Sequence record: ON210139.1
Length of the DNA: 64,000 bases
Source of the DNA: Escherichia phage EC128
Reading direction: 5' to 3' (one strand)
Shown here: positions 3,806 through 58,200 of the stretch, piece after piece
How the letters are laid out: the number at the start of each line of letters is the position of its first letter
How positions within the stretch are numbered: the first letter of the stretch is position 1
Position numbers and translations under genes: made by a program
The notes under the pieces: model-generated
Database searches by the model: none
The model's input: only the letters and a program-made list of their open reading frames with translations
What the model was told of the DNA's origin: nothing

Positions 3806-3859
3806 GTTTACAAGTCCCTCGTGTTGTGTTACAGTAGTCTTACTGACATAACATGAGGA
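3806..3859 (+). promoter_or_regulatory. early promoter/stem-loop element, copy A (GTTTAC -35, TACAGT -10, through SD GAGGA)
   Basis: GTTTAC 3806-3811, 18-nt spacer, TACAGT 3830-3835; 53/54 nt identical to 17909-17962; imperfect stem GTCC(C)TCGTGTT/AACATGAGGAC encloses the -10. Confidence 0.6.
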
Positions 3860-6442: not shown

Positions 6443-6639
6443 TGGCTTGGCACCATGAAACTTGGGCTATTGTTATTGTAAATAGCGGTTTAGTTGTTAC
6501 TAGTAATGGGCAATTTTGTGTATTTACTAGTGAAAATAGAGCATGGGAGGAATGTCTTAAATTAAGAGAAAAGAATCCCGATGTTGAACTAGTAGTAAAG
6601 AAAACTAAACTGCCTTTACCATGGAAAACTTATGAATAA
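6442..6639 (+). CDS. hypothetical protein, 65 aa
   Basis: ATG overlaps pseT stop (TAATG); track ORF extends upstream without an ATG. Confidence 0.55.
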
Positions 6640-6832
6640 CCTAGAAAAGATTTATCGTCTTTGTGATAAAATTGAAAAAGAAAAGAAATATCTATTTTGT
6701 CTATGGCCTATTGTTGACGGAAGAGTAGGCCTAGATGTTCTTGATTATGAAACAGAAGACAAAGTAGATGGCGCAACTTTTGATAACGCTTTGGATGTTA
6801 TTGATTGGCTCGAAGAAAATTATGTGAGGTAA
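6632..6832 (+). CDS. hypothetical protein, 66 aa
   Basis: ATG start overlapping upstream ORF end; acidic C-terminus. Confidence 0.55.
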   Translation: MNNLEKIYRLCDKIEKEKKYLFCLWPIVDGRVGLDVLDYETEDKVDGATFDNALDVIDWLEENYVR

Positions 6833-6834
6833 AT

Positions 6835-7110
6835 ATGTTTCCGACTTACTCTAAAATCGTAGAAGTAGTGTTTAGCCAAATTATCGCTAATAACATGTTT
6901 GAAAAGCTTGATAATGCAGCTGAACTTCGAATCCACGCTCAAGTGACTCATGTATTGAATACTTTGCTTCCAGACCAGGTGGATTCTGTTGCCATCACGT
7001 TGTATCCAGGTTCCGCGCATATCATTGTTGTATTCGGTCTTGATGCTGAGCTAGTCATCAAAGGCGATATTCGCTTTGAATCACAGACATCAGAATTCAA
7101 AGCAATTTAA
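6835..7110 (+). CDS. hypothetical protein, 91 aa
   Basis: ATG6835 with SD GTGAGGT; track ORF starts at TTG6805. Confidence 0.55.
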   Translation: MFPTYSKIVEVVFSQIIANNMFEKLDNAAELRIHAQVTHVLNTLLPDQVDSVAITLYPGSAHIIVVFGLDAELVIKGDIRFESQTSEFKAI

Positions 7111-7112
7111 TA

Positions 7113-7151
7113 GTTTACTTTACGGTAGAGTTGTGATATTATAGCTCTACC
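7113..7151 (+). promoter_or_regulatory. early promoter with stem-loop enclosing the -10 (PeSL-like)
   Basis: GTTTAC 7113-7118, 18-nt spacer, TATTAT 7137-7142; stem GGTAGAG (7124-7130) / CTCTACC (7145-7151). Confidence 0.5.
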
Positions 7152-7172
7152 AAAACAAATGAGGAAATTGAA

Positions 7173-7700
7173 ATGAGCGAATGGTTTGAAGAAGATAAGG
7201 TTTATCGCTTTAAAGCTGGATATAAAGATATTTTTAATGAAACTTGCGGGGCTAATAAACGAATTGCCCAGTTTATTGGGGAAAATTCATTTAAAGTAAA
7301 AATAGATCCTGCGAAAAATGTTATTAGCATTAAACGCGAAATTGATGATTGTTGGTATAAAGCTGTTGATGTAATGGGCGAATCTTATAAAGTTAGCCCG
7401 TTATTTTCAATTGCTTATATGTTAGAATATTCTTTTTTCGAAGAAGTTCAAAAAGATGATTCTGTCAGTAAATTTGAAATTAAAACTGATAAAGAAATTA
7501 AGTGGAAAGTAGTAGGTATTACTGGTTGTATGTTTTATATCTATGCTCAAACTGATACGAAGGAAGAAGCTAAAAAGAAAGCTCTAGAATATCTTGAAGA
7601 GTATGAAGAAGGTCCGGTAATGATTACTCAAGATGCTGAATTAGTTTCTGTCAAATTAGTTAAAAATGTTGAAAGTAAGGAGCTGGGATCAACATGCTAA
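7173..7700 (+). CDS. hypothetical protein, 175 aa
   Basis: ATG with SD GAGGA; follows PeSL-like promoter; no recognisable motif. Confidence 0.65.
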   Translation: MSEWFEEDKVYRFKAGYKDIFNETCGANKRIAQFIGENSFKVKIDPAKNVISIKREIDDCWYKAVDVMGESYKVSPLFSIAYMLEYSFFEEVQKDDSVSKFEIKTDKEIKWKVVGITGCMFYIYAQTDTKEEAKKKALEYLEEYEEGPVMITQDAELVSVKLVKNVESKELGSTC

Positions 7701-7930
7701 GTGAAAAACCAATTACTGTTAAAGAATTCCAAGAAAAAGTTAAACTATTTGCTCAGGAATTGGTAAATAAGGTTTCTGAACGATTTCCAGAAACATCGGT
7801 TCGTGTTATTACCGAAACTCCTCGTTCAGTATTAGTAATTGTGAATCCAGGTGATGGCGATCAAATATCGCATCTTAAACTGGATTTTGATGGATTAGTT
7901 GAAGCACAAAGGGTGTATGGCGTACTATGA
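7694..7930 (+). CDS. hypothetical protein, 78 aa
   Basis: ATG start, SD AAGGAG upstream, overlaps neighbours by a few nt. Confidence 0.55.
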   Translation: MLSEKPITVKEFQEKVKLFAQELVNKVSERFPETSVRVITETPRSVLVIVNPGDGDQISHLKLDFDGLVEAQRVYGVL

Positions 7931-8265
7931 TGAATTTAACTGATATAATTGATAATTGTCTTGAAAATGATACTGGCGATCATAGAGCGCTTGACTCTGA
8001 AACAGCAAAGTTCATTAGAATAACTTTAATGAATGATACTCTGGTGAATAGTATTCATCCTTCTGTGTATGATGCTATTATTGTGACGAAGTATCCAGTT
8101 GAGCTTCACAAAAAGATGACTGGTGCAGTTTTTATTGATAAGAAAAACCGCTTTAAAGATGGGCAGAATATAATTAGTTCTGTTATTAAAAGTATAACTA
8201 AACTTCGTCACGAAATTTATCGTGTTGAAACTGCTAAATCTGCTTATCTGGTGATTATGAAATGA
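7927..8265 (+). CDS. hypothetical protein, 112 aa
   Basis: ATG start overlapping upstream stop; ends overlapping cd start. Confidence 0.6.
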   Translation: MMNLTDIIDNCLENDTGDHRALDSETAKFIRITLMNDTLVNSIHPSVYDAIIVTKYPVELHKKMTGAVFIDKKNRFKDGQNIISSVIKSITKLRHEIYRVETAKSAYLVIMK

Positions 8266-8843
8266 AAGCGAGTACAGTACTTCAAATTGCATATTTAGTA
8301 TCGCAGGAATCAAAATGTTGCTCCTGGAAGGTAGGAGCAGTAATTGAAAAGAATGGACGTATTATTTCTACTGGGTATAATGGTTCACCCGCAGGAGGTG
8401 TGAACTGTTGTGATTATGCTGCTGAGCAAGGTTGGTTATTGAATAAGCCTAAACATACTATCATTCAAGGTCATAAGCCTGAATGTGTATCATTTGGTTC
8501 AACTGATCGTTTTGTCTTGGCGAAAGAACACCGCAGCGCTCACTCGGAATGGTCATCTAAAAATGAAATTCATGCTGAACTAAATGCAATTTTGTTTGCT
8601 GCACGAAATGGTTCTTCTATTGAAGGTGCTACTATGTATGTAACACTTTCTCCATGTCCGGATTGCGCAAAAGCGATAGCTCAATCTGGAATTAAAAAAC
8701 TAGTTTATTGCGAAACATACGACAAAAATAAACCTGGTTGGGATGATATTTTGCGAAATGCAGGTATTGAAGTGTTTAATGTTCCTAAGAAAAACTTGAA
8801 TAAGTTAAACTGGGAAAATATCAACGAATTCTGTGGTGAATGA
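8262..8843 (+). CDS. cd: dCMP deaminase, 193 aa
   Basis: Cytidine/dCMP deaminase zinc motifs HAELNAI and SPCPDCAK; length and position as T4 cd. Confidence 0.95.
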   Translation: MKASTVLQIAYLVSQESKCCSWKVGAVIEKNGRIISTGYNGSPAGGVNCCDYAAEQGWLLNKPKHTIIQGHKPECVSFGSTDRFVLAKEHRSAHSEWSSKNEIHAELNAILFAARNGSSIEGATMYVTLSPCPDCAKAIAQSGIKKLVYCETYDKNKPGWDDILRNAGIEVFNVPKKNLNKLNWENINEFCGE

Positions 8844-9079
8844 TGAAATTTCGTTTGGTAAAGCTCACAGCAATTAGTTCTTATTCTAATGAGAACATCT
8901 CATTTGCTGTAGAGTATAAGAAATATTTTTTCTCTAAATGGAAACAGTATTATAAAACTGATTGGACTAGTATTGATAGACCATATAGTTGGAAATCTGA
9001 TTTAGAAAAATGCCAAAAATTACTTTCCACCCTTAAAGAACGTGGAACAACTCATATTAAAACTGTGATAGGTAAATAA
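8840..9079 (+). CDS. hypothetical protein, 79 aa
   Basis: ATG overlapping cd stop; no recognisable motif. Confidence 0.55.
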   Translation: MMKFRLVKLTAISSYSNENISFAVEYKKYFFSKWKQYYKTDWTSIDRPYSWKSDLEKCQKLLSTLKERGTTHIKTVIGK

Positions 9080-9388
9080 ATGAAACTGACAACTGAGCAG
9101 AAAGTAGCAATTCGTGAAATTTTGAAAACTAAATTGTCCATGGGTGTTTCAAACGTAGTTTTTGAAAAGTCTGATGGTACTATTCGTACTATGAAAGGTA
9201 CTCGTGACGCAGACTTTATGCCAACCATGCAAACTGGTAAATTAACTGAATCTACTCGGAAAGAATCTACTGATATGATTCCAGTATTTGATGTTGAGCT
9301 TGGTGCATGGCGAGGTTTTTCTATTGACAAATTGATTTCCGTTAATGGTATGAAAGTTGAGCATTTGCTTCAATTTATTGGTAAATAA
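9080..9388 (+). CDS. hypothetical protein, 102 aa
   Basis: ATG immediately after upstream stop; no recognisable motif. Confidence 0.6.
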   Translation: MKLTTEQKVAIREILKTKLSMGVSNVVFEKSDGTIRTMKGTRDADFMPTMQTGKLTESTRKESTDMIPVFDVELGAWRGFSIDKLISVNGMKVEHLLQFIGK

Positions 9389-9444
9389 ATGCTTTAAGAA
9401 TTATTTGTTATTATTAATTCATCTGTTAACAAAAAGGAAAAACA

Positions 9445-9780
9445 ATGTCTGAAGTACAACAGCTACCAATTCGTGCTGTCGGTGAATATGTTATTTTAGT
9501 TTCTGAACCCGCACAGGCGGGTGATGAAGAAGTTACAGAATCAGGACTTATTATCGGTAAACGTGTCCAAGGTGAAGTTCCTGAACTGTGTGTAGTTCAC
9601 TCTGTCGGTCCTGATGTTCCTGAAGGTTTCTGCGAAGTTGGTGATTTGACTTCTCTTCCAGTTGGTCAAATTCGAAATGTTCCGCATCCTTTTGTAGCTC
9701 TGGGTCTTAAGCAGCCAAAAGAAATTAAACAAAAATTCGTTACCTGTCACTATAAAGCTATTCCGTGTCTTTATAAGTGA
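9445..9780 (+). CDS. 31: co-chaperonin gp31 (GroES analogue), 111 aa
   Basis: [39 protein letters not shown].. matches T4 gp31; SD AAGGAAA upstream. Confidence 0.95.
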
Positions 9781-9788
9781 TATAAATA
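9781..9788 (+). promoter_or_regulatory. candidate late promoter TATAAATA in rIII leader
   Basis: Exact TATAAATA immediately after gene 31 stop, 140 nt upstream of rIII. Confidence 0.4.
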
Positions 9789-9927
9789 ATAATATGAATT
9801 GGATGTCGGAATAATAAGTTAACCGAACAATTCTATGTGGTAGTCTACAACTGAGAGATCTGTCGAAAGAAGATGAAATTCAGAAGAACGTGACTACCGA
9901 GTTTTAATCTCTAACGAGAATTTTTAA

Positions 9928-10176
9928 ATGATTAAACAATTACAACACGCTCTTGAACTGCAACGAAACGCATGGAATAATGGTCACGAAAACTATGGCG
10001 CATCTATTGATGTTGAAGCCGAAGCTCTTGAAATCCTGCGTTATTTCAAACATCTGAATCCTGCTCAAACTGCATTAGCTGCTGAGCTTCAGGAAAAAGA
10101 TGAACTTAAGTATGCTAAGCCTCTGGCTTCTGCTGCACGAAAAGCAGTTCGTCACTTTGTGGTAACATTGAAGTAA
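9928..10176 (+). CDS. rIII: rIII lysis-inhibition accessory protein, 82 aa
   Basis: MIKQLQHALELQRNAWNNGHENYG..; length and position after gene 31 as in T4. Confidence 0.9.
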   Translation: MIKQLQHALELQRNAWNNGHENYGASIDVEAEALEILRYFKHLNPAQTALAAELQEKDELKYAKPLASAARKAVRHFVVTLK

Positions 10177-10244
10177 TTTATTGGAGATTCACTGCCTTAG
10201 TGTGAGCTAAAATCGAGGAGCCATCGAACTGTCTGATTAATGAT

Positions 10245-10433
10245 TTGCGAATCATTATAGTTTTAAGACCCCGGCAGTTTTATGGTGTACCTCTTGAATG
10301 TTACTATCATGCGTCAGAAAAGTGTTATCTGTGTAAGTCTTGGTGGTATGATGACGAGGTTTATGGTTATCCTGTCGGTAAATATTCAAAACCTAAGTAC
10401 CCCTTTGAGGGCTTGCGCAGGCAATGCCAATAA
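10245..10433 (+). CDS. possible Cys/Trp/Tyr-rich small protein (62 aa) with TTG start; coding status uncertain
   Basis: Track ORF starts at TTG with no SD and no in-frame ATG; composition looks protein-like; an overlapping 56-codon ATG ORF at 10282-10452 is an alternative. Confidence 0.3.
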   Translation: MRIIIVLRPRQFYGVPLECYYHASEKCYLCKSWWYDDEVYGYPVGKYSKPKYPFEGLRRQCQ

Positions 10434-10466
10434 GTCCTGCATTTTCATTTAAAAGAGAATTTATAA

Positions 10467-10642
10467 TGGCAAAACAAGTTAAAGCAAAGAAAGCAGTTGA
10501 AAAGAAAGTTGGTGATTCTAAACGCGCTGGTTACAAGCGTGGGTCGAACTCTCGTATCAATCAAACTGTTGAGAAGATCATGCGCCGAGCACGTGCGGTT
10601 CTTCGAGATGATGCTTCTCGTTTTGGTAAGCAGAAAGCATAA
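10467..10642 (+). CDS. small highly basic protein (58 aa; alternative start ATG10424 gives 72 aa)
   Basis: MAKQVKAKKAVEKKVGDSKRAGYKRG..; SD-like AAAGAGA before ATG10467; followed by a strong terminator. Confidence 0.55.
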
Positions 10643-10647
10643 GTTGA

Positions 10648-10676
10648 GGACTCCTTCGGGAGTCCTTTTTTATTTT
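10648..10676 (+). terminator. rho-independent terminator
   Basis: Stem GGACTCC-TTCG-GGAGTCC followed by TTTTTTATTTT. Confidence 0.8.
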
Positions 10677-10695
10677 CCAAAGATTGCATAAAGTT

Positions 10696-10744
10696 GTTTA
10701 CAGTATAGTTCCTTTGTGATAGTATTATCTTACACAAACAAAGG
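10696..10744 (+). promoter_or_regulatory. early promoter (GTTTAC -35, TAGTAT/TATTAT -10) with possible stem enclosing the -10
   Basis: GTTTAC 10696-10701; -10 at about 10720-10729; CCTTTGT (10711-10717) can pair with ACAAAGG (10738-10744). Confidence 0.5.
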
Positions 10745-10752
10745 AGAATAAA

Positions 10753-11085
10753 ATGAAAACGATTAATCTGAACGCTGCAGTTAAAACTAAATGCTTCAAT
10801 GGTAAATATAATGAAACTATGTGGTTCTTAATGGCAGTTGAAGGTGATATTATTGAAGTAGAAACAACAGAAGGTATGGGAACAGATTTCACCTTTACAA
10901 TTCAAGTTCATAATTTCTTTACTGGTTGGATTTATGAATTGAATACAGTAATCGTTGGAAAAATTGAACAAAATGAATTAGGCGAATGGCATTATGTTAC
11001 AGCTCGCCAACGTGCAGAACGCTTAATTGAGAAGATGAAAAAAGTTGGTAAACTTGACATGCAGCATTGGAAAGTAGTAAAATAA
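10753..11085 (+). CDS. hypothetical protein, 110 aa
   Basis: ATG with SD AAGGAG; downstream of early promoter. Confidence 0.65.
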   Translation: MKTINLNAAVKTKCFNGKYNETMWFLMAVEGDIIEVETTEGMGTDFTFTIQVHNFFTGWIYELNTVIVGKIEQNELGEWHYVTARQRAERLIEKMKKVGKLDMQHWKVVK

Positions 11086-11087
11086 TT

Positions 11088-11128
11088 GTTTACTTTGGTA
11101 CAGGACATGATATTATATACCTGTACCG
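11088..11128 (+). promoter_or_regulatory. early promoter with stem-loop enclosing the -10 (PeSL-like)
   Basis: GTTTAC 11088-11093, 17-nt spacer, TATTAT 11111-11116; stem GGTACAGG (11097-11104) / CCTGTACC (11121-11128). Confidence 0.55.
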
Positions 11129-11152
11129 CAATTAAACATCTTGGAGAATAAA

Positions 11153-11518
11153 ATGAACTACATTAACTTTGAACGTAAATATGTTTCTAATGGTATTGCA
11201 GGTTCTATTGATACCATCTGCCTTTGGAAACATCAAAATGGATCAGTATGCGAAATCGAACAGTATATGACTCCTAACTACGTTTATATGCGATTTGAAA
11301 ACGGTATCACGGTTTCAATCACGATGGAAGGTTCCAACTTTAAAATCGCTCTGGATGATGATTTCCGTCAACGTGATTTAGGGACTCATCCTTGCTGGAA
11401 TGGTGCTAATCGTAAACTCTTAGTTAAAACTTGGATTCGTCATATTCTGAGTAACAAAGCTAAACCTGAGCACTTGGAAGCAATCTTTGATGTAGTTCTT
11501 AACGAATTTGATATTTAA
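11153..11518 (+). CDS. hypothetical protein, 121 aa
   Basis: ATG11153 with SD GGAGAA; track ORF begins at TTG11141. Confidence 0.65.
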   Translation: MNYINFERKYVSNGIAGSIDTICLWKHQNGSVCEIEQYMTPNYVYMRFENGITVSITMEGSNFKIALDDDFRQRDLGTHPCWNGANRKLLVKTWIRHILSNKAKPEHLEAIFDVVLNEFDI

Positions 11519-11557
11519 AATAAATGAGGGGCTTCGGCCCCTATTGAGGAAAATATT

Positions 11558-11845
11558 ATGTTTATGACTACTTATTTTGATACCCGCAAAAATTTCTGTG
11601 AAGTTGTTTTCTCAAAGGCACCTAAAGACCTTCCTGCACATTTGCAACCTACTAGCGAATCGATTAAAAACTACGTTGATGTGGTTTGTCCTTTAGAGTT
11701 CCGTACTGTAAATGGGCGTGATACTTTAGCTATCACTAAACTCAATCGCGAAATTGACATTGACCCTTCAATTGCGCGCGAAATTAATATCTCTGATATT
11801 GGCGGCGGTAATGTTAAATCGCACGGTTTTCAGATGAGGTTCTAA
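11558..11845 (+). CDS. hypothetical protein, 95 aa
   Basis: ATG with SD GAGGA; preceded by hairpin GGGGC-TTCG-GCCCC at 11528-11541. Confidence 0.6.
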   Translation: MFMTTYFDTRKNFCEVVFSKAPKDLPAHLQPTSESIKNYVDVVCPLEFRTVNGRDTLAITKLNREIDIDPSIAREINISDIGGGNVKSHGFQMRF

Positions 11846-12042
11846 TGAAATTCTTTTTAGGTCAAACTGTTGAATTAAAGGGAGTTGGTATACCTGGATT
11901 AATTTCTAAGGTTCTACCTCCATTTAAATGGAGTGGTATTCAAATAAAAGAGGCTTATATTGTTTCCTGGGTAGATGGAAATGAAGACCTTCGTATGGGT
12001 GATGAATTATCTCCTATCTACGGATTAAAGGAATTAGTATGA
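11845..12042 (+). CDS. hypothetical protein, 65 aa
   Basis: TAATG overlap with upstream ORF; SD GAGGT. Confidence 0.55.
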   Translation: MKFFLGQTVELKGVGIPGLISKVLPPFKWSGIQIKEAYIVSWVDGNEDLRMGDELSPIYGLKELV

Positions 12043-13532: not shown

Positions 13533-13801
13533 TGTTTGTTGTTCACACTATTTATGAAAATGAAGGTAATACTACACGTGATTACGGTCACGTAAATCAA
13601 TTTTTTAGATGCAATCCAGAATTCCGAGCTCAAAAAGACGAACGAATTTTTAAAAAATGCGTAGAGCAAGGTTTCATTTATATCAAGCACTGGATGCAAG
13701 GAAATAAAGTTAGAACCACATATCATAAGTCTTTGACTGAGCTTAATGATGAATTGATTTATAATAGAGCTGTAAACCAAACTCTGAAGGATGAACAATG
13801 A
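13532..13801 (+). CDS. hypothetical protein, 89 aa
   Basis: TAATG overlap with upstream ORF; SD AAGGAG. Confidence 0.6.
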   Translation: MFVVHTIYENEGNTTRDYGHVNQFFRCNPEFRAQKDERIFKKCVEQGFIYIKHWMQGNKVRTTYHKSLTELNDELIYNRAVNQTLKDEQ

Positions 13802-15261
13802 TTCTTAAAATTCTGAACGAAATAGCATCTATTGGTTCAACTAAGCAGAAGCAAGCAATTCTTGAAAAGAATAAAGATAATGAATTGCTTAAACGAGTAT
13901 ATCGTCTGACTTATTCTCGTGGGCTGCAGTATTATATCAAGAAATGGCCTAAACCTGGTATTGCTACCCAGAGTTTTGGAATGTTGACTCTTACCGATAT
14001 GCTTGACTTCATTGAATTCACATTAGCTACTCGGAAATTGACTGGAAATGCAGCAATTGAGGAATTAACTGGATATATCACCGATGGTAAAAAAGATGAT
14101 GTTGAAGTTTTGCGTCGAGTGATGATGCGAGACCTTGAATGTGGTGCTTCAGTATCTATTGCAAACAAAGTTTGGCCAGGTTTAATTCCTGAACAACCTC
14201 AAATGCTGGCAAGTTCTTATGATGAAAAAGGCATTAATAAGAATATCAAATTTCCAGCCTTTGCCCAGTTAAAAGCTGATGGGGCTCGGTGCTTTGCCGA
14301 AGTCAGAGGTGATGAATTAGATGATGTTCGTCTTTTATCACGAGCCGGTAATGAATATCTAGGATTAGATCTTCTTAAGGAAGAATTAATCAAAATGACC
14401 GCTGAAGCCCGCCAGATTCATCCAGAAGGCGTGTTAATTGATGGCGAATTGGTATACCATGAGCAAGTTAAAAAGGAGCCAGAAGGCCTAGATTTTCTTT
14501 TTGATGCTTATCCTGAAAACAGTAAAGCCAAAGAATTCGCCGAAGTAGCTGAATCACGTACTACTTCTAATGGAATCGCTAATAAATCTTTAAAGGGAAC
14601 CATTTCTGAAAAAGAAGCTCAATGCATGAAGTTTCAGGTCTGGGATTATGTTCCATTGGTAGAAATATACGGTCTTCCTGCATTTCGTTTGAAATATGAT
14701 GTACGTTTTTCTAAACTAGAACAAATGACATCAGGCTATGATAAAGTAATTTTAATTGAAAACCAGGTAGTAAATAACCTAGATGAAGCTAAGGTAATTT
14801 ATAAAAAGTATATTGACCAAGGTCTTGAAGGTATTATTCTCAAAAATATCGATGGATTATGGGAAAATGCTCGTTCAAAAAATCTCTATAAATTTAAAGA
14901 AGTAATTGATGTTGATTTAAAAATTGTAGGAATTTATCCTCACCGTAAAGACCCTACTAAAGCGGGTGGATTTATTCTTGAGTCAGAGTGTGGAAAAATT
15001 AAGGTAAATGCTGGTTCAGGCTTAAAAGATAAAGCCGGTGTAAAATCACATGAACTTGACCGTACTCGCATTATGGAAAACCAAAATTATTATATTGGAA
15101 AAATTCTAGAGTGCGAATGCAACGGTTGGTTAAAATCTGATGGCCGCACTGATTACGTTAAATTATTTCTTCCGATTGCGATTCGTTTACGTGAAGATAA
15201 AACTAAAGCTAATACATTCGAGGATGTATTTGGTGATTTTCATGAGGTAACTGGTCTATGA
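13798..15261 (+). CDS. 30: ATP-dependent DNA ligase, 487 aa
   Basis: MILKILNEIASIGSTKQKQAILEKNK.. and adenylation motif KADGAR; matches T4 DNA ligase. Confidence 0.97.
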   Translation: MILKILNEIASIGSTKQKQAILEKNKDNELLKRVYRLTYSRGLQYYIKKWPKPGIATQSFGMLTLTDMLDFIEFTLATRKLTGNAAIEELTGYITDGKKDDVEVLRRVMMRDLECGASVSIANKVWPGLIPEQPQMLASSYDEKGINKNIKFPAFAQLKADGARCFAEVRGDELDDVRLLSRAGNEYLGLDLLKEELIKMTAEARQIHPEGVLIDGELVYHEQVKKEPEGLDFLFDAYPENSKAKEFAEVAESRTTSNGIANKSLKGTISEKEAQCMKFQVWDYVPLVEIYGLPAFRLKYDVRFSKLEQMTSGYDKVILIENQVVNNLDEAKVIYKKYIDQGLEGIILKNIDGLWENARSKNLYKFKEVIDVDLKIVGIYPHRKDPTKAGGFILESECGKIKVNAGSGLKDKAGVKSHELDRTRIMENQNYYIGKILECECNGWLKSDGRTDYVKLFLPIAIRLREDKTKANTFEDVFGDFHEVTGL

Positions 15262-17551: not shown

Positions 17552-17937
17552 TGGAACTTATTACATAATTATTTGACGGCGCTTCGGCGCCGGTTGTTAA
17601 CTTAAATCCTAAGCATAAAATACCACAAATTTTTGCTATTCAAGCCGGCGAAGAAAGCGTGCTTCCTGGATTTAGATTTTGTACATACACCTCTGGCGGT
17701 GATACGAATAAAAACGTTAAGCCGGGCGATAAAATGATGCATATCGTAATGATAGGTGTTAATGAGAAATTATCACTGGTTAAGCTTAGAAACTTGGGTG
17801 GAAATCCAATTGGCGTCATTAATGCTGTTTTTGATACTGCTCTTCAAACAATGAAGCAGTATAAAATTGACGCATGCCTATTCCGCGTACTAAAAAGTTC
17901 AAAATGTAGTTTACAAGTCCCTCGTGTTGTGTTATAG
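17552..17937 (+). pseudogene. decayed duplicate of the alt 5' region (Alt N-terminal paralogue remnant)
   Basis: ATGGAACTTATTACATAA.. parallels alt start ATGGAACTAATTACAGAA; in-frame TAA at codon 6, then open through residues equivalent to Alt ~7-125; ends inside the downstream promoter repeat. Confidence 0.5.
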
Positions 17938-17962
17938 TAGTCTTACTGACATAACATGAGGA
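17909..17962 (+). promoter_or_regulatory. early promoter/stem-loop element, copy B
   Basis: 53/54 nt identical to 3806-3859 (single C/T difference in the -10); GTTTAC 17909-17914, TATAGT 17933-17938, SD GAGGA 17958-17962. Confidence 0.6.
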
Positions 17963-55214: not shown

Positions 55215-58200
55215 CTATTTTAACCTGTGTTGGATTTTCAGGGTCTCTTGGATTTCCTATATTATCTTTTAGACGTTTATTAACTAAATCTCTAAATTGC
55301 GCAAATGTTGTTCCAGATGCATCAAATAAAGGACTCATTAATTTACGTCGTTCAGACGGCAATTGACCTTGAAATATTGAATTATTATTTTCAGCATTAT
55401 AGTCATCAGGAAGAGGATATTCTACACCAGCCATTGGGCCAGGCTCATAAATTGCTTCGCCTGTTACCGAATCATGCTCAATTTCACCAGTTGGAGTCAA
55501 TTTAGCTACTCTATCAGCATATTCAGTAGGCAATCCAGAATCCCATTTATAGTTTTTGTATTTATTAATTATAGTCTCTGTGTGTTTAAGAGTTAAACCA
55601 ACATTAATAAACATCGTTAAAAGGGTAATTGCTATAAATCCAAATCCTACTGGATGAACAAAACGAATAACGTCAGATTTCCAACGAGAAGAAGGTAAAT
55701 TGGATTTAATTTTCATTACATAATATGATCGACTTCTATTAATATAGTCTATATTATTTTGAAGCAAATCCTTTCCTTTAACCCCACGAATAATTTCGCC
55801 TTCAAAACTAGGAAGTCTTTCTGCTTTAACTTCTTGACCAGCAATTAATCGTCCCAAAAGATTATGAATAGTTACGGTCCATTGCAATTTACCATTAGAA
55901 TAGCTTCTTTCTATATAAGTAACATTACATCTTCCTGTAGCTGTATAAATCGTTTGTCCTACTAAGTCTTCTGTCAAAGAATCAGATTGAACGATTATAT
56001 CATATTCAGTACCAGCCCCAGATTCAATTTCAATTTCAACTTCTTCATTATAAAGAACTTTAAAAAGAAATTTGTATGATGCTTCAATTCCTTTAGTAGA
56101 ATAAAAATCATAGCTACGTGATTCAAAAAATCTTGCAACAGCATCACGTTTGTCAGCATTTAAATAAATGTTTCTTTTATATATCTCTGACCACAAATAT
56201 TCCCATGCATGCTCTTCTCGTGGATATTGGTTACGAATTAAATTTCGTAAATTATTATACTGAGTTCCATATCCATCAGAAAGATACTGAATATATGCTT
56301 CGCAAAATGCCTCAAAATTAGAATCCTGTAGCAAATAAGAATCAGGCATCATTGTGCCAATCAATGGTCTTAAATCAGGATCAGCTAATCCATGCTCTTC
56401 TTCCGGGGACCAAGGAGTTTCACGCTCTTGGTTTTGTAAAAATGCTTTTAAAAATATTCCAGTTGGCTTCCAAATTATTTCAACCGTGTCTCTCACTCGA
56501 TAGTTAAAATCATAGTAAGAAATTATTTCACCAGAAGATTTATAAAAAAGCATCCCAGACGCATATTTTTTAAATCCTGTGAATTTAACATTTGGCATTA
56601 CTATCGTACAATCACCATCATCCCAGTATTCATGAACTAATCTATCTGGCGATGTTTCCGGAATATTTTCTATAACTTTGGTGTATTTTAAATCAGCATA
56701 AACTACTACAGCTCTATCAGAGTTGTTTATCCAACAACGTGTGTTAGATTTTTTAGACCAGTTAAAGAATGGTTCAGCATAATATTTCATTGGTTGCGGA
56801 GCAAAGGTTTCCCAATCAGACTTTTCATCTGCTATAAATGCCATCATATGATAATGCTTATCAGCTAACCATTCACGAGGAAATTCATATTTAACAGCAC
56901 CGATTAACTGATATTTCGCTGCAGTTTCAGGGTCATTAACAATGTTATCACTTAAAAATTTAAAATTACTCGAAGATAGAGAAACTAATTTACCGTCAGT
57001 TGACATATTCGCATATCCAGGTTGAATACGTCTTCTTTCTTCTTCAGTGTTGCCAAAAACTCTTTTCCACGTTTTTGTATCATGATTTAAAACGTATATT
57101 CCTTTATCATCAGAATCAATTATTTTTGATGTTCTAGGATTAGCATTTAATGTTTCAACTTCACCAATAATAAGAGCAAAAACTTTATCACCGATAGAAT
57201 CCATTTTATAGCATACTGCTTTAGGATTTCCGGTTATAGTCATTGTATCAGGTTCAAAAAGTCTTTCCGAATATGTTGGAGATAATGGATCAGAATCTAT
57301 AGGTGCATTACTCGTTTTTATGTATCTAACTTTGTCTCTGGCGACAACGTAAATGTAATCATCGGTGCAAGTAATAGCTTCAGCTATACGATACACATTT
57401 GCAGGTAATGTAGCATAAGTACCAAAGATTTCAACATCAAATCCCAAATGAAGTTGACCACCAAGTTTAGCGAATGTTATATCCTGCGAACTAAATCTGA
57501 CATCATCAGCTGACCATCTAACATCAGTAGATTTGCGGCCATAGAAAATCTTGTCGTATCCTAGAACGTATGTTGTGCTCGCAGATTGGTAATATACAGT
57601 CTTAGATAAAGGATATCCTACACGGTCATTGAAGAGCTTTACAGCTTTCCAGGTTTGACCTTTATCATTGGATACTTTAACTACAGGTTGATAACGCTCA
57701 AAAAGATATAGAATCCCTTCTGATTCCATCAAATAAACTCGATTAATATCCTTACATACTTGCTGAATAGAACCTTGTATTTCATGATACTCATTTTCAC
57801 CAATAATAAAATTACTTATTGATGAAACATCAGCATATGATGGGCTGAATTGGAATGATTCATTCATCAATGCAGCCATTATAGTGTCATTATTAAAATT
57901 AACATAGTCAGAATTATTAAGAGTAAATTTTTCCTGAATGAATTTATTAGCTAATTGCATTTCAATCATGTTTTGAAATGTATAAGCGTTTGTAGCAAAA
58001 GTTTCAAACTCTTCGGTATAAATCCAATCAGACTGCTCAAAATCCTGTGCAGCTGTAGCTACTCTAATAATGTACGATGTCAATGGATTAGCATTATCAA
58101 AAAAGAAGCTGTTATTTGCAGTATATCCTAAGTTAATCCATCTGTATTGATTACTCGGGAGATTTTCCCCCGAGTTTGTTTTTGTCTCAGCGATTTCTAC

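Follow-up and report, generated by a model that had tools for sequence, protein, structure and literature searches.

Promoter-early-stem-loop (PeSL) elements of T4-like phages have been defined as a strong sigma-70 early promoter with an A/T-rich upstream tract and a stem-loop, joined to the Shine-Dalgarno sequence (SD) and ATG of a small open reading frame (ORF) (Arbiol et al. 2010, PMC2839356). In the same study, they were found mainly in hyperplastic regions, mini-circle crossovers were localized within or beside the stem-loop, and the stem-loop of one phi1 PeSL cut lacZ expression in a reporter as much as rrnB T1 did (PMC2839356). According to the accessible text of a later study (Comeau et al. 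2014, PMC4122927), the class extends to PST/T4, with the promoter consensus TTTACW-N17-TAYWAT; in a figure legend there, the stem is located immediately before the promoter and its consensus is AGNA..TCNT, the authors note greater stem-loop variability in the PST/T4 group, and the names ORF213, cd.2 and 30.7 do not occur in that accessible text. Here, we report on three early promoters, P1 (7113-7151), P3 (10696-10746) and P2 (11088-11128), whose -10 hexamers lie in the loop of a hairpin, in a stretch of 64,000 nucleotides (nt) from Escherichia phage EC128 (ON210139.1), the whole of which is referred to as the window. Since catalogued T4 early promoters correspond to them and the PeSL motif was published in 2010 and 2014, the three elements are already known, as T4 early promoters of the published PeSL type. 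What is useful here is a quantitative demonstration of selection on the stems (44% of promoters across the T4 genome compared to 5% in the control, and turnover of the arms among eight lineages), evidence that this selection acts on the sense RNA and not on the DNA, and the finding that one name covers two designs, ribosome-site silencing in read-through RNA and a plain intercistronic hairpin without terminator features.

All three elements have the parts of a T4-type early sigma-70 promoter, namely a GTTTAC-type -35, a spacer of 17±1 nt and a TAnnnT -10, and in all three the -10 is extended by TGA and the -35 is preceded by an A/T-rich, UP-like tract (the 14 nt upstream of the -35 are AAAGCAATTTAATA, GTAGTAAAATAATT and GATTGCATAAAGTT for P1, P2 and P3). 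The motif GTTTAC-N14-15-TGnTAnnnT had 5 matches in the 64-kb window compared to 0.12 expected from shuffles, all on the + strand and each upstream of an ORF. The fourth and fifth members are the early promoters of alc (3806-3859, + strand), which has a long imperfect hairpin (free energy, dG, of -23.3) with the SD GAGGA within its 3' arm, and of alt.-3 (17909-17962, + strand). This enrichment, and a layout that is one of the published PeSL layouts, bear out an earlier sequence-only reading, which had described early promoters with a stem-loop around the -10 at 7113, 10696 and 11088; the three sites are present as it described them. The core that it saw as shared between the two tight copies, GTTTACTTT..TGATATTATA, is present but is simply the T4 early-promoter consensus, that is, the -35 and the extended -10.

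P1, in the gap between cd.3 and cd.2, has its -35 GTTTAC at 7113-7118, the 5' arm GGTAGAG at 7124-7130, the TGA of the extended -10 at 7134-7136, the -10 TATTAT at 7137-7142 and the 3' arm CTCTACC at 7145-7151, with the SD GAGGA (7161-7165) outside the hairpin. Its stem has 7 Watson-Crick pairs plus T7131·G7144, its spacer is 17 nt counted from TTTACT, and as RNA the stem grows to 12 bp, including 3 G·U pairs (dG -14.8). P2, the early promoter of 30.7, has the -35 GTTTAC at 11088-11093, the 5' arm GGTACAGG at 11097-11104, TGA from 11108, the -10 TATTAT at 11111-11116 after a 16-nt spacer, and the 3' arm CCTGTACC at 11120-11127; its SD GGAG (11143-11146) also lies outside the hairpin, and position 11128 contributes only a T·G wobble with 11096. 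P1 and P2 begin right after the stop codons of cd.3 and 30.8, with no intervening terminator. P3, the early promoter of 30.8, has the -35 GTTTAC at 10696-10701, the 5' arm TTCCTTTGT at 10709-10717 and TGA-TAGTAT at 10717-10725 (-10 at 10720-10725), and in its best helix the 3' arm ACAAAGGAG at 10738-10746 is the Shine-Dalgarno sequence itself. Thus, the site at 10696 is not a looser copy of the tight stem, as had been supposed, but a different design.

T4 has the P1, P2 and P3 sequences almost base for base, the P1 hairpin being identical and P2 differing at a single loop base. Compared to the catalogued T4 Pe promoters, which have a GTTTAC -35, TGn, a -10 and an UP element, the elements here are near-identical in sequence, on the same strand, in the same position and before the same downstream genes, with no difference of substance other than an extra 175-codon ORF (ORF175), which P1 drives ahead of cd.2 in this phage. 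P3 is linked to its T4 promoter by sequence identity only. Truncaite and colleagues are said to have described, in 2006, a pair of strong early promoters together with a conserved stem-loop sequence from this very region. The equivalent of P1 is annotated in the T4 RefSeq record (NC_000866) as "early promoter Pe133295 between cd.2 and cd.3", and the T4 30.7 early transcript serves as a RegB substrate (PMC9409239). The same RefSeq record states that 14 nt at T4 133300-133313 (window 7131-7144) were formerly reported as their inverted complement and that the revision "corrects the early promoter Pe133295"; this stretch is exactly the loop between the P1 arms. The former report could be a hairpin-induced sequencing artefact or a genuine loop inversion. 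A pattern scan for P1 with a flipped loop was uninformative, since with inverted-repeat arms the flipped hairpin is merely the reverse complement of the original, and it returned the same five contigs as a locus search with a single protein.

The resemblance to PeSL elements proposed by the sequence-only reading holds for the definition and for the phi1 layout. P1, P2 and P3 each join a sigma-70 early promoter, preceded by an A/T-rich tract, to a stem-loop and to the SD and start codon of a small ORF; their layout agrees with the phi1 classes, their promoter consensus agrees with the PST/T4 type, and they adjoin indels and allele swaps in a variable early region. The resemblance does not extend to the PST-type stem position or consensus as far as the accessible text gives them: the arms here bracket the -10, in contrast to the stem upstream of the promoter in the PST legend, and they read GGTA..TACC, in contrast to the G-run and C-run of phi1/RB49 and the AGNA..TCNT of PST. 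In addition, the published "terminator" label is without sequence support here, as no U-tract is present and the reporter evidence comes from one phi1 element, and ORF175 is bounded by a single cassette.

Singly, the stems are only moderately unusual. DNA-fold z-scores were -1.63 for P1, -3.67 for P2 and -1.95 for P3, so the secondary-structure prediction suggested by the sequence-only reading gave its strongest support at P2 and was not significant at P1; the case rests on genome-wide enrichment and on conservation with arm turnover. For the enrichment, we took a census of the whole T4 genome, comprising 36 early-strand sites that match GTTTAC[AT]-N16-18-TAnnnT and have a downstream start (four sites with no detected downstream start, P1 among them, were dropped). 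Each site was scored by the best contiguous helix between the -35/-10 spacer and the stretch from the -10 to the start codon, a score of at least 18 corresponding to about 8 bp or more, and as a control, the spacer of one promoter was paired with the downstream region of another. The results show that 16 of the 36 T4 early promoters (44%) reach this score compared to 5.2% in the arm-swap control (mean score 12.3), and that none of 5000 permutations attained the observed mean. In addition, a comparison of two T4 paralogues, at 57989 and 20611, reveals compensatory substitutions on both sides of two pairs, two substitutions that create wobble pairs, and none that disrupts the helix. Taken together with their conservation in relatives, these results show that the stems as a class are clearly non-random and under selection.

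The helices fall into two groups. In one, the 3' arm ends at most 8 nt from the ATG and covers the SD (P3, alc, alt.-3, denV, vs.3 and dexA); in the other, the 3' arm ends 15-43 nt before the ATG (P2, ipII, ipIII, 57B, dmd and motB), a layout that P1 shares. A third promoter design was observed at T4 50972, 2457 and 167085 and upstream of 659 in the locus L051, in which a small hairpin (CCACAAGGATGTGG or CACCACGGATGGTG) lies entirely within the -35/-10 spacer and its 3' arm provides the TG of the extended -10.

For conservation, we compared the 100 nt that precede the gp30.7 homologues in IMG/VR contigs and in phage records, which together cover Tequatro-, Mosig-, Dhaka-, Gapriver-, Winkler-, Karam-, Jiaoda- and Gelderlandvirus (loci carry L numbers). 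Locus searches with a single protein gave only close relatives, and an alignment query plus tblastn against phage records reached further. Two obvious recombinants apart, all lineages retain a helix with its 5' arm in the spacer and the -10 in its loop, and eight lineages have seven unrelated sequences for the arms. The 5' and 3' arms are GGTACAGG and CCTGTACC in the T4-like lineage, GGTGAGAGTCT and AGACTCTCACC in L017 (Winklervirus), GGTGTAGGAGT and ACTCTTACACC with one G·T in L030-32, TTTGTAGGAGAC and GTCTCCTACAAA in L036, GCTGATTGAGTGT and ACACTCAATCAGC in L038, TTGGGTGGT and ACCACCCAA in L019 (Jiaodavirus, JD18), and CTCCGTTGTAT and ATACAACGGAG, the latter being the SD, in L018 and its relatives (Karamvirus, Gelderlandvirus). 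Since the helices shift in register and length between genera (the outer pair spans 31-38 nt), their pairs are not column-homologous, and the column-by-column covariation count was replaced by a test of matched against mismatched arms. Across the gp30.7 promoters of the eight lineages, matched arms had a mean helix score of 27.6 compared to 13.7 for mismatched arms, and the RNA hairpin energies ranged from -12 to -22 kcal/mol. At the other promoters, the Mosigvirus P1 hairpin is GGTGGAG/CTCTACC with one G·T, and the P3 helix covaries with its SD context, being TTCCTTTGT/ACAAAGGAG here, TCTCCGGT/ACTGGAGA in Mosig-like contigs and TCCAGTG/CACTGGA in others. Relatives thus keep the stems through wholesale replacement of the arms, in line with the conservation by compensatory change on which the sequence-only reading had staked its interpretation.

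A leader block, GGAGAATAAAATG (window 11143-11155, and leaders in L003-L038), is nearly invariant in all these genera before both 30.8 and 30.7. The motif targeted by RegB/S1 (PMC1702504) is the probable reason, and the block is a further short repeat usable for recombination; the L034 junction appears to lie within it.

The wobble pairs argue for selection on the sense RNA rather than on the DNA. The 16 strong T4 helices lengthened from 7.9 to 11.0 bp when G·T was allowed, and to only 8.5 bp when A·C, the antisense wobble, was allowed; in the swap control, the two gains were similar (1.9 bp with G·T and 1.5 bp with A·C). The single-side stem substitutions noted, in L004, L025, L030-32 and Mosigvirus P1, all yield G·T. 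A G·T bias confined to the sense strand points to a structure in sense RNA, and not to a duplex operator, a cruciform or an antisense RNA.

The position of the hairpin relative to the transcription start determines which RNA can form it. A literature search for a data set of T4 start sites found none, and we inferred the starts at about 7 nt after the -10, at ~7149 (P1), ~10732 (P3) and ~11123-11125 (P2). Starts so predicted fall inside or just before the 3' arm (inside it for P2), leaving the 5' arm upstream; RNA from the local promoter would therefore lack the 5' arm, and the hairpin would form solely in read-through RNA. The probability that the SD is unpaired was calculated with the ViennaRNA partition function for read-through RNA and for RNA from the local start. 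For P3, this probability rises from 0.00 in read-through RNA to 0.81 in RNA from its own start, and for alc, from 0.03 to 0.77. The corresponding values are 0.16 and 0.11 for alt.-3, 0.69 and 0.88 for P1, and 0.77 and 0.51 for P2. Hence, P3 is predicted to have its SD base-paired in the long transcript and accessible in the short one, which is not the case for P1 or P2. As for termination, no U-tract follows the stem in any of the 16 strong T4 helices or in P1, P2 and P3 (0-2 T in 8 nt, compared to 7 of 8 for the terminator after 30.9), a consensus terminator scan did not call P1, P2 or P3, and the G+C-rich stem, short loop and U-run of an intrinsic terminator are not found, the loops being 12-20 nt.

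We consider it probable, though well short of certain, that these elements are sigma-70 early promoters interleaved with an RNA hairpin of read-through transcripts. In each, the A/T-rich upstream region, the GTTTAC -35, the 16-17 nt spacer and the TGn-extended -10 constitute the promoter, and the hairpin occupies the sole freely variable promoter positions, with the 5' arm in the spacer and the 3' arm just past the -10. In the P3 design, where the 3' arm is the SD, read-through RNA would be silent for 30.8 translation and only RNA from the local promoter would be translated; alc shares this design, and alt.-3 has the same helix, although its folding calculation gives no difference between read-through RNA and its own RNA. 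In the tight design of P1 and P2, the hairpin ends 10-25 nt before the SD and has no U-tract, and it most likely works as an intercistronic hairpin sealing off the message from upstream, be it as a barrier to 3'-exonucleases after cleavage by RegB or an RNase or as an attenuator of read-through. Because the gap of 60-70 nt must also hold a promoter, such a hairpin would have to occupy promoter positions that are free to vary. With its hairpin and ribosome site, each promoter would form a self-contained expression cassette, and repeated cassettes may supply homology for gene swaps and deletions, as in the PeSL model.

Described hairpins offer partial precedents for both designs. In the T4 genes e, soc, 49 and I-TevI, the ribosome site is sequestered by a hairpin in long transcripts (PMC3014915). 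P3 may be the early-promoter version of this late-gene logic: in P3 and alc, the long transcript is predicted to pair the SD with a 5' arm upstream of an internal start, and the short transcript to leave the SD free. The known cases, in contrast, use late (gp55) promoters and delay expression, whereas the promoters here are immediate-early sigma-70 promoters and the effect would confine translation to the early period; P1 and P2 have no SD sequestration. For the tight design, the nearest precedent is the intercistronic C(UUCG)G hairpins of T4 mRNAs, reportedly described by Tuerk and colleagues in 1988. Those hairpins are stable, free of a U-tract and located between cistrons, and P1 and P2 stand in the equivalent place after cd.3 and 30.8; the P1 and P2 loops, however, are 12-15 nt, contain the -10 box and close weaker hairpins (dG -12 to -15 kcal/mol). 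Phage N4 virion RNA polymerase promoters, where an extruded DNA hairpin with a 5-7 bp stem and a 3-nt loop is the recognition element, also associate a promoter with an inverted repeat, but the promoters here are standard duplex sigma-70 promoters, and the evidence favors an RNA hairpin.

It is unlikely that the stems are instead DNA-level recombination signals or homology patches, in the manner of the PeSL mini-circle model, in which a recombination protein might bind the stem, and that the RNA hairpin is incidental. The mini-circle crossovers within or next to the stem-loop (PMC2839356), the breakpoints at cassette edges, the variable gene content between 30.9 and 30.7 and the ORF175 indel beside P1 would all suit such a role. 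None of the breakpoints seen here, however, is in a stem, their positions being the -35, the SD-ATG block or the interval between start codons; the arms are wholly different from one lineage to the next, and P1 and P2 also differ from each other, so that little homology would come from the stems; the sense-only G·T bias is unexpected for a signal in duplex DNA or a cruciform; and ORF175 has no second flanking copy. A true terminator of upstream transcription, as in the "composite promoter-terminator" of the literature, is a distinctly improbable function for the stem-loops. The phi1 stem-loop that matched rrnB T1 in a reporter (PMC2839356) speaks for it, as does the location of P1 and P2 right after the cd.3 and 30.8 stop codons with no other terminator between, but the missing U-tracts, the silent terminator scan, the 12-20 nt loops and the stems of just 7-9 bp in P1-P3 do not fit, and T4 early transcripts run into downstream genes (PMC2988021).

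The repeats could also act on the promoter as duplex or extruded DNA, either as an operator for a dimeric or structure-specific phage factor (e.g. in early shut-off) or as a cruciform that modulates opening of the -10. They bracket the -10 like a classical operator, and the mechanism of early-promoter shut-off is unexplained (PMC3014915, PMC2988021). This role is nevertheless very doubtful, since neither between lineages nor within the T4 genome do the arms have a sequence in common that could be a conserved half-site, loops of 8-20 nt disfavor cruciform extrusion by established DNA energetics, wobble pairs are confined to one strand, the 3' arm of the SD-occluding class is 20-40 nt from the -10, and more than half of early promoters lack the repeat. 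That the stems are functionless, as chance palindromes or passive relics of promoter duplication, is barely plausible: 14 of 200 shuffles fold as well as P1, and short A/T-rich intergenic DNA readily forms weak helices, as the swap-control mean indicates, but chance would not give the 44% against 5% enrichment with 0 of 5000 permutations, seven independent arm sequences at the same place before one orthologous gene, or the compensatory double changes observed.

Several points also weigh against promoters interleaved with a read-through hairpin. The P1 stem by itself is not significant, about half of the T4 early promoters have no such helix, which shows that the helix is not required for promoter function, and the stem is wholly missing in L028, in the 30.8 promoter of JD18 and in Gaprivervirus P1. 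The start positions depend on the assumed distance of about 7 nt from the -10, and the alt.-3 SD is predicted to be paired in both forms of the RNA. A strong terminator (10646-10677) stands directly before P3, which would leave limited read-through RNA to silence. Lastly, the P1 and P2 hairpins have no U-tract and leave SD access unaltered, so their proposed role is one that we infer.

The sequence-only reading also marked the three downstream ORFs as exchangeable cargo, which fits ORF175, fits 30.8 in part and does not fit 30.7. ORF175 (7173-7700, + strand; phrog_3710, no Pfam family), which is ORF213 of phage PST, is found in 302 phage records, all at least 90% identical and at Tequatrovirus level, compared to 497 records for cd.2 (at least 95% identity). 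T4 and Mosigvirus lack it and have the same leader fused to the cd.2 start instead, and its slot between cd.3 and cd.2 is taken by related ORFs in Dhakavirus and Gaprivervirus. The ORF175 stop TAA (7698-7700) overlaps the cd.2 start at 7694, and P1 is its single flanking cassette; bounded by one cassette only, ORF175 does not fit the mini-circle picture with two PeSL elements. Gene 30.8 (10753-11085, + strand; Pfam PF06019, phrog_1507) and gene 30.7 (11153-11518, + strand; Pfam PF06919, phrog_1582) are both syntenic across many genera (1041 records for gp30.8 and 994 for gp30.7, with 1395 for gene 31). Between 30.9 and 30.7, there are 0-4 genes among the loci examined; the 30.8 allele is swapped in L007, L012-15 and L021, and the gene is absent from L028, L034 and L035. 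Thus, a location next to ORFs that differ between close relatives, as expected of a hyperplastic region, is seen in the ORF175 indel, the variation between 30.9 and 30.7 and the 30.8 swaps, with 30.7 itself widespread and conserved.

Some of these changes have their boundaries at the cassettes. In L007 and L012-15, homology to the window ends near 10675 and restarts exactly at 11088, the G of the P2 GTTTAC, with a divergent 30.8 between. In L034, a 30.8-type promoter is joined straight to 30.7, as if a JD18-like genome had undergone a deletion between two of its promoter cassettes. The alc and alt.-3 cassettes differ at 1 base in 54 nt, from the G of GTTTAC through the SD GAGGA, and have unrelated flanks; this looks like a promoter-hairpin-SD cassette that was duplicated or converted over a distance of 14 kb. 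No recombination event between copies was seen within the window itself.

The proteins of the ORF175 family (window 7173-7700; L017 1918-2442; L018 1908-2429; L019 1895-2407; L050 647-1201; L051 659-1201; L057 1583-1840) have about 170-185 amino acids, an N-terminus MS.FFEE.K.Y and no Pfam family, and in three genera the cd.3/cd.2 slot is occupied by members. The L057 allele is truncated to 85 amino acids, and a "putative homing endonuclease" annotated beside ORF175 in some records proved to be a label on this truncated allele. Distant N-terminal relatives of ORF175 (BLASTP E = 2e-7) lie between 30.8 and 30.7 in other genera, with two in L036.

The window is Tequatrovirus: the 4.9-kb stretch around the three sites shares 98.5% identity with Escherichia phage FL23 and 95-99% with some 500 further Tequatrovirus records. 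The window is collinear with the T4 minus strand, its + strand being the T4 early strand, and ORF175 stands between cd.3 (6835-7110) and cd.2 (7694-7930). After cd.2 follow cd.1, cd, 31.2, 31.1, gene 31 and rIII, in that order, and then 30.9 (~10466-10642). The intrinsic terminator after 30.9 (10646-10677, + strand) consists of GAGGACTCC-TTCG-GGAGTCCTT and a T-run, with an RNA dG of -14.9 and T at 7 of the first 8 tail bases, and is directly upstream of P3. Between 30.7 and 30.6, there is an intercistronic C(UUCG)G hairpin without a promoter (11527-11542, no U-tract on the + strand), and equivalent hairpins are present in distant genera; the genes from 30.6 onward lead to the DNA ligase gene 30 (13798-15261). 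An Rfam search of window 6500-12000 gave nothing relevant, with a sub-threshold match over the 30.9 terminator only, and ARAGORN found no tRNA in window 9000-11500. Within the latter interval, window 10092-10474, which comprises the rIII end and the spacer between rIII and 30.9, is 95% identical to Escherichia phage muut, a 146-kb phage that is not T4-like, where the counterpart is annotated as tRNA-Gln; ARAGORN predicts no tRNA there in the window. In addition, a non-coding block of about 70 nt at window 9838-9908, with the core CTGTCGAAAGAAGNTGAAA and closed by the 7-bp stem GGTAGTC..GACTACC, lies between gene 31 and rIII here and between rIII and 30.9 in Karamvirus-like contigs (L018 ~920-975, L022-24 and L026). 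This block has no Rfam match, and its fold is not significant (z = -0.98).

As one of the two designs has no terminator features, the "promoter-terminator" label is open to question, and the split into two designs may be connected, in a way open to test, with the rapid and so far unexplained end of T4 early gene expression. Tentatively, the presence of nearly half of T4-type early promoters inside hairpins of read-through RNA may amount to a genome-wide rule by which a gene is translated only from its own promoter, although we regard this generalization as doubtful at present. If it is true, then after early-promoter shut-off, read-through RNA would be silent in the SD-occluding class or severed from the upstream message in the tight class, which would help to account for the abrupt stop of immediate-early protein synthesis, and each small ORF would be a portable, insulated expression cassette.

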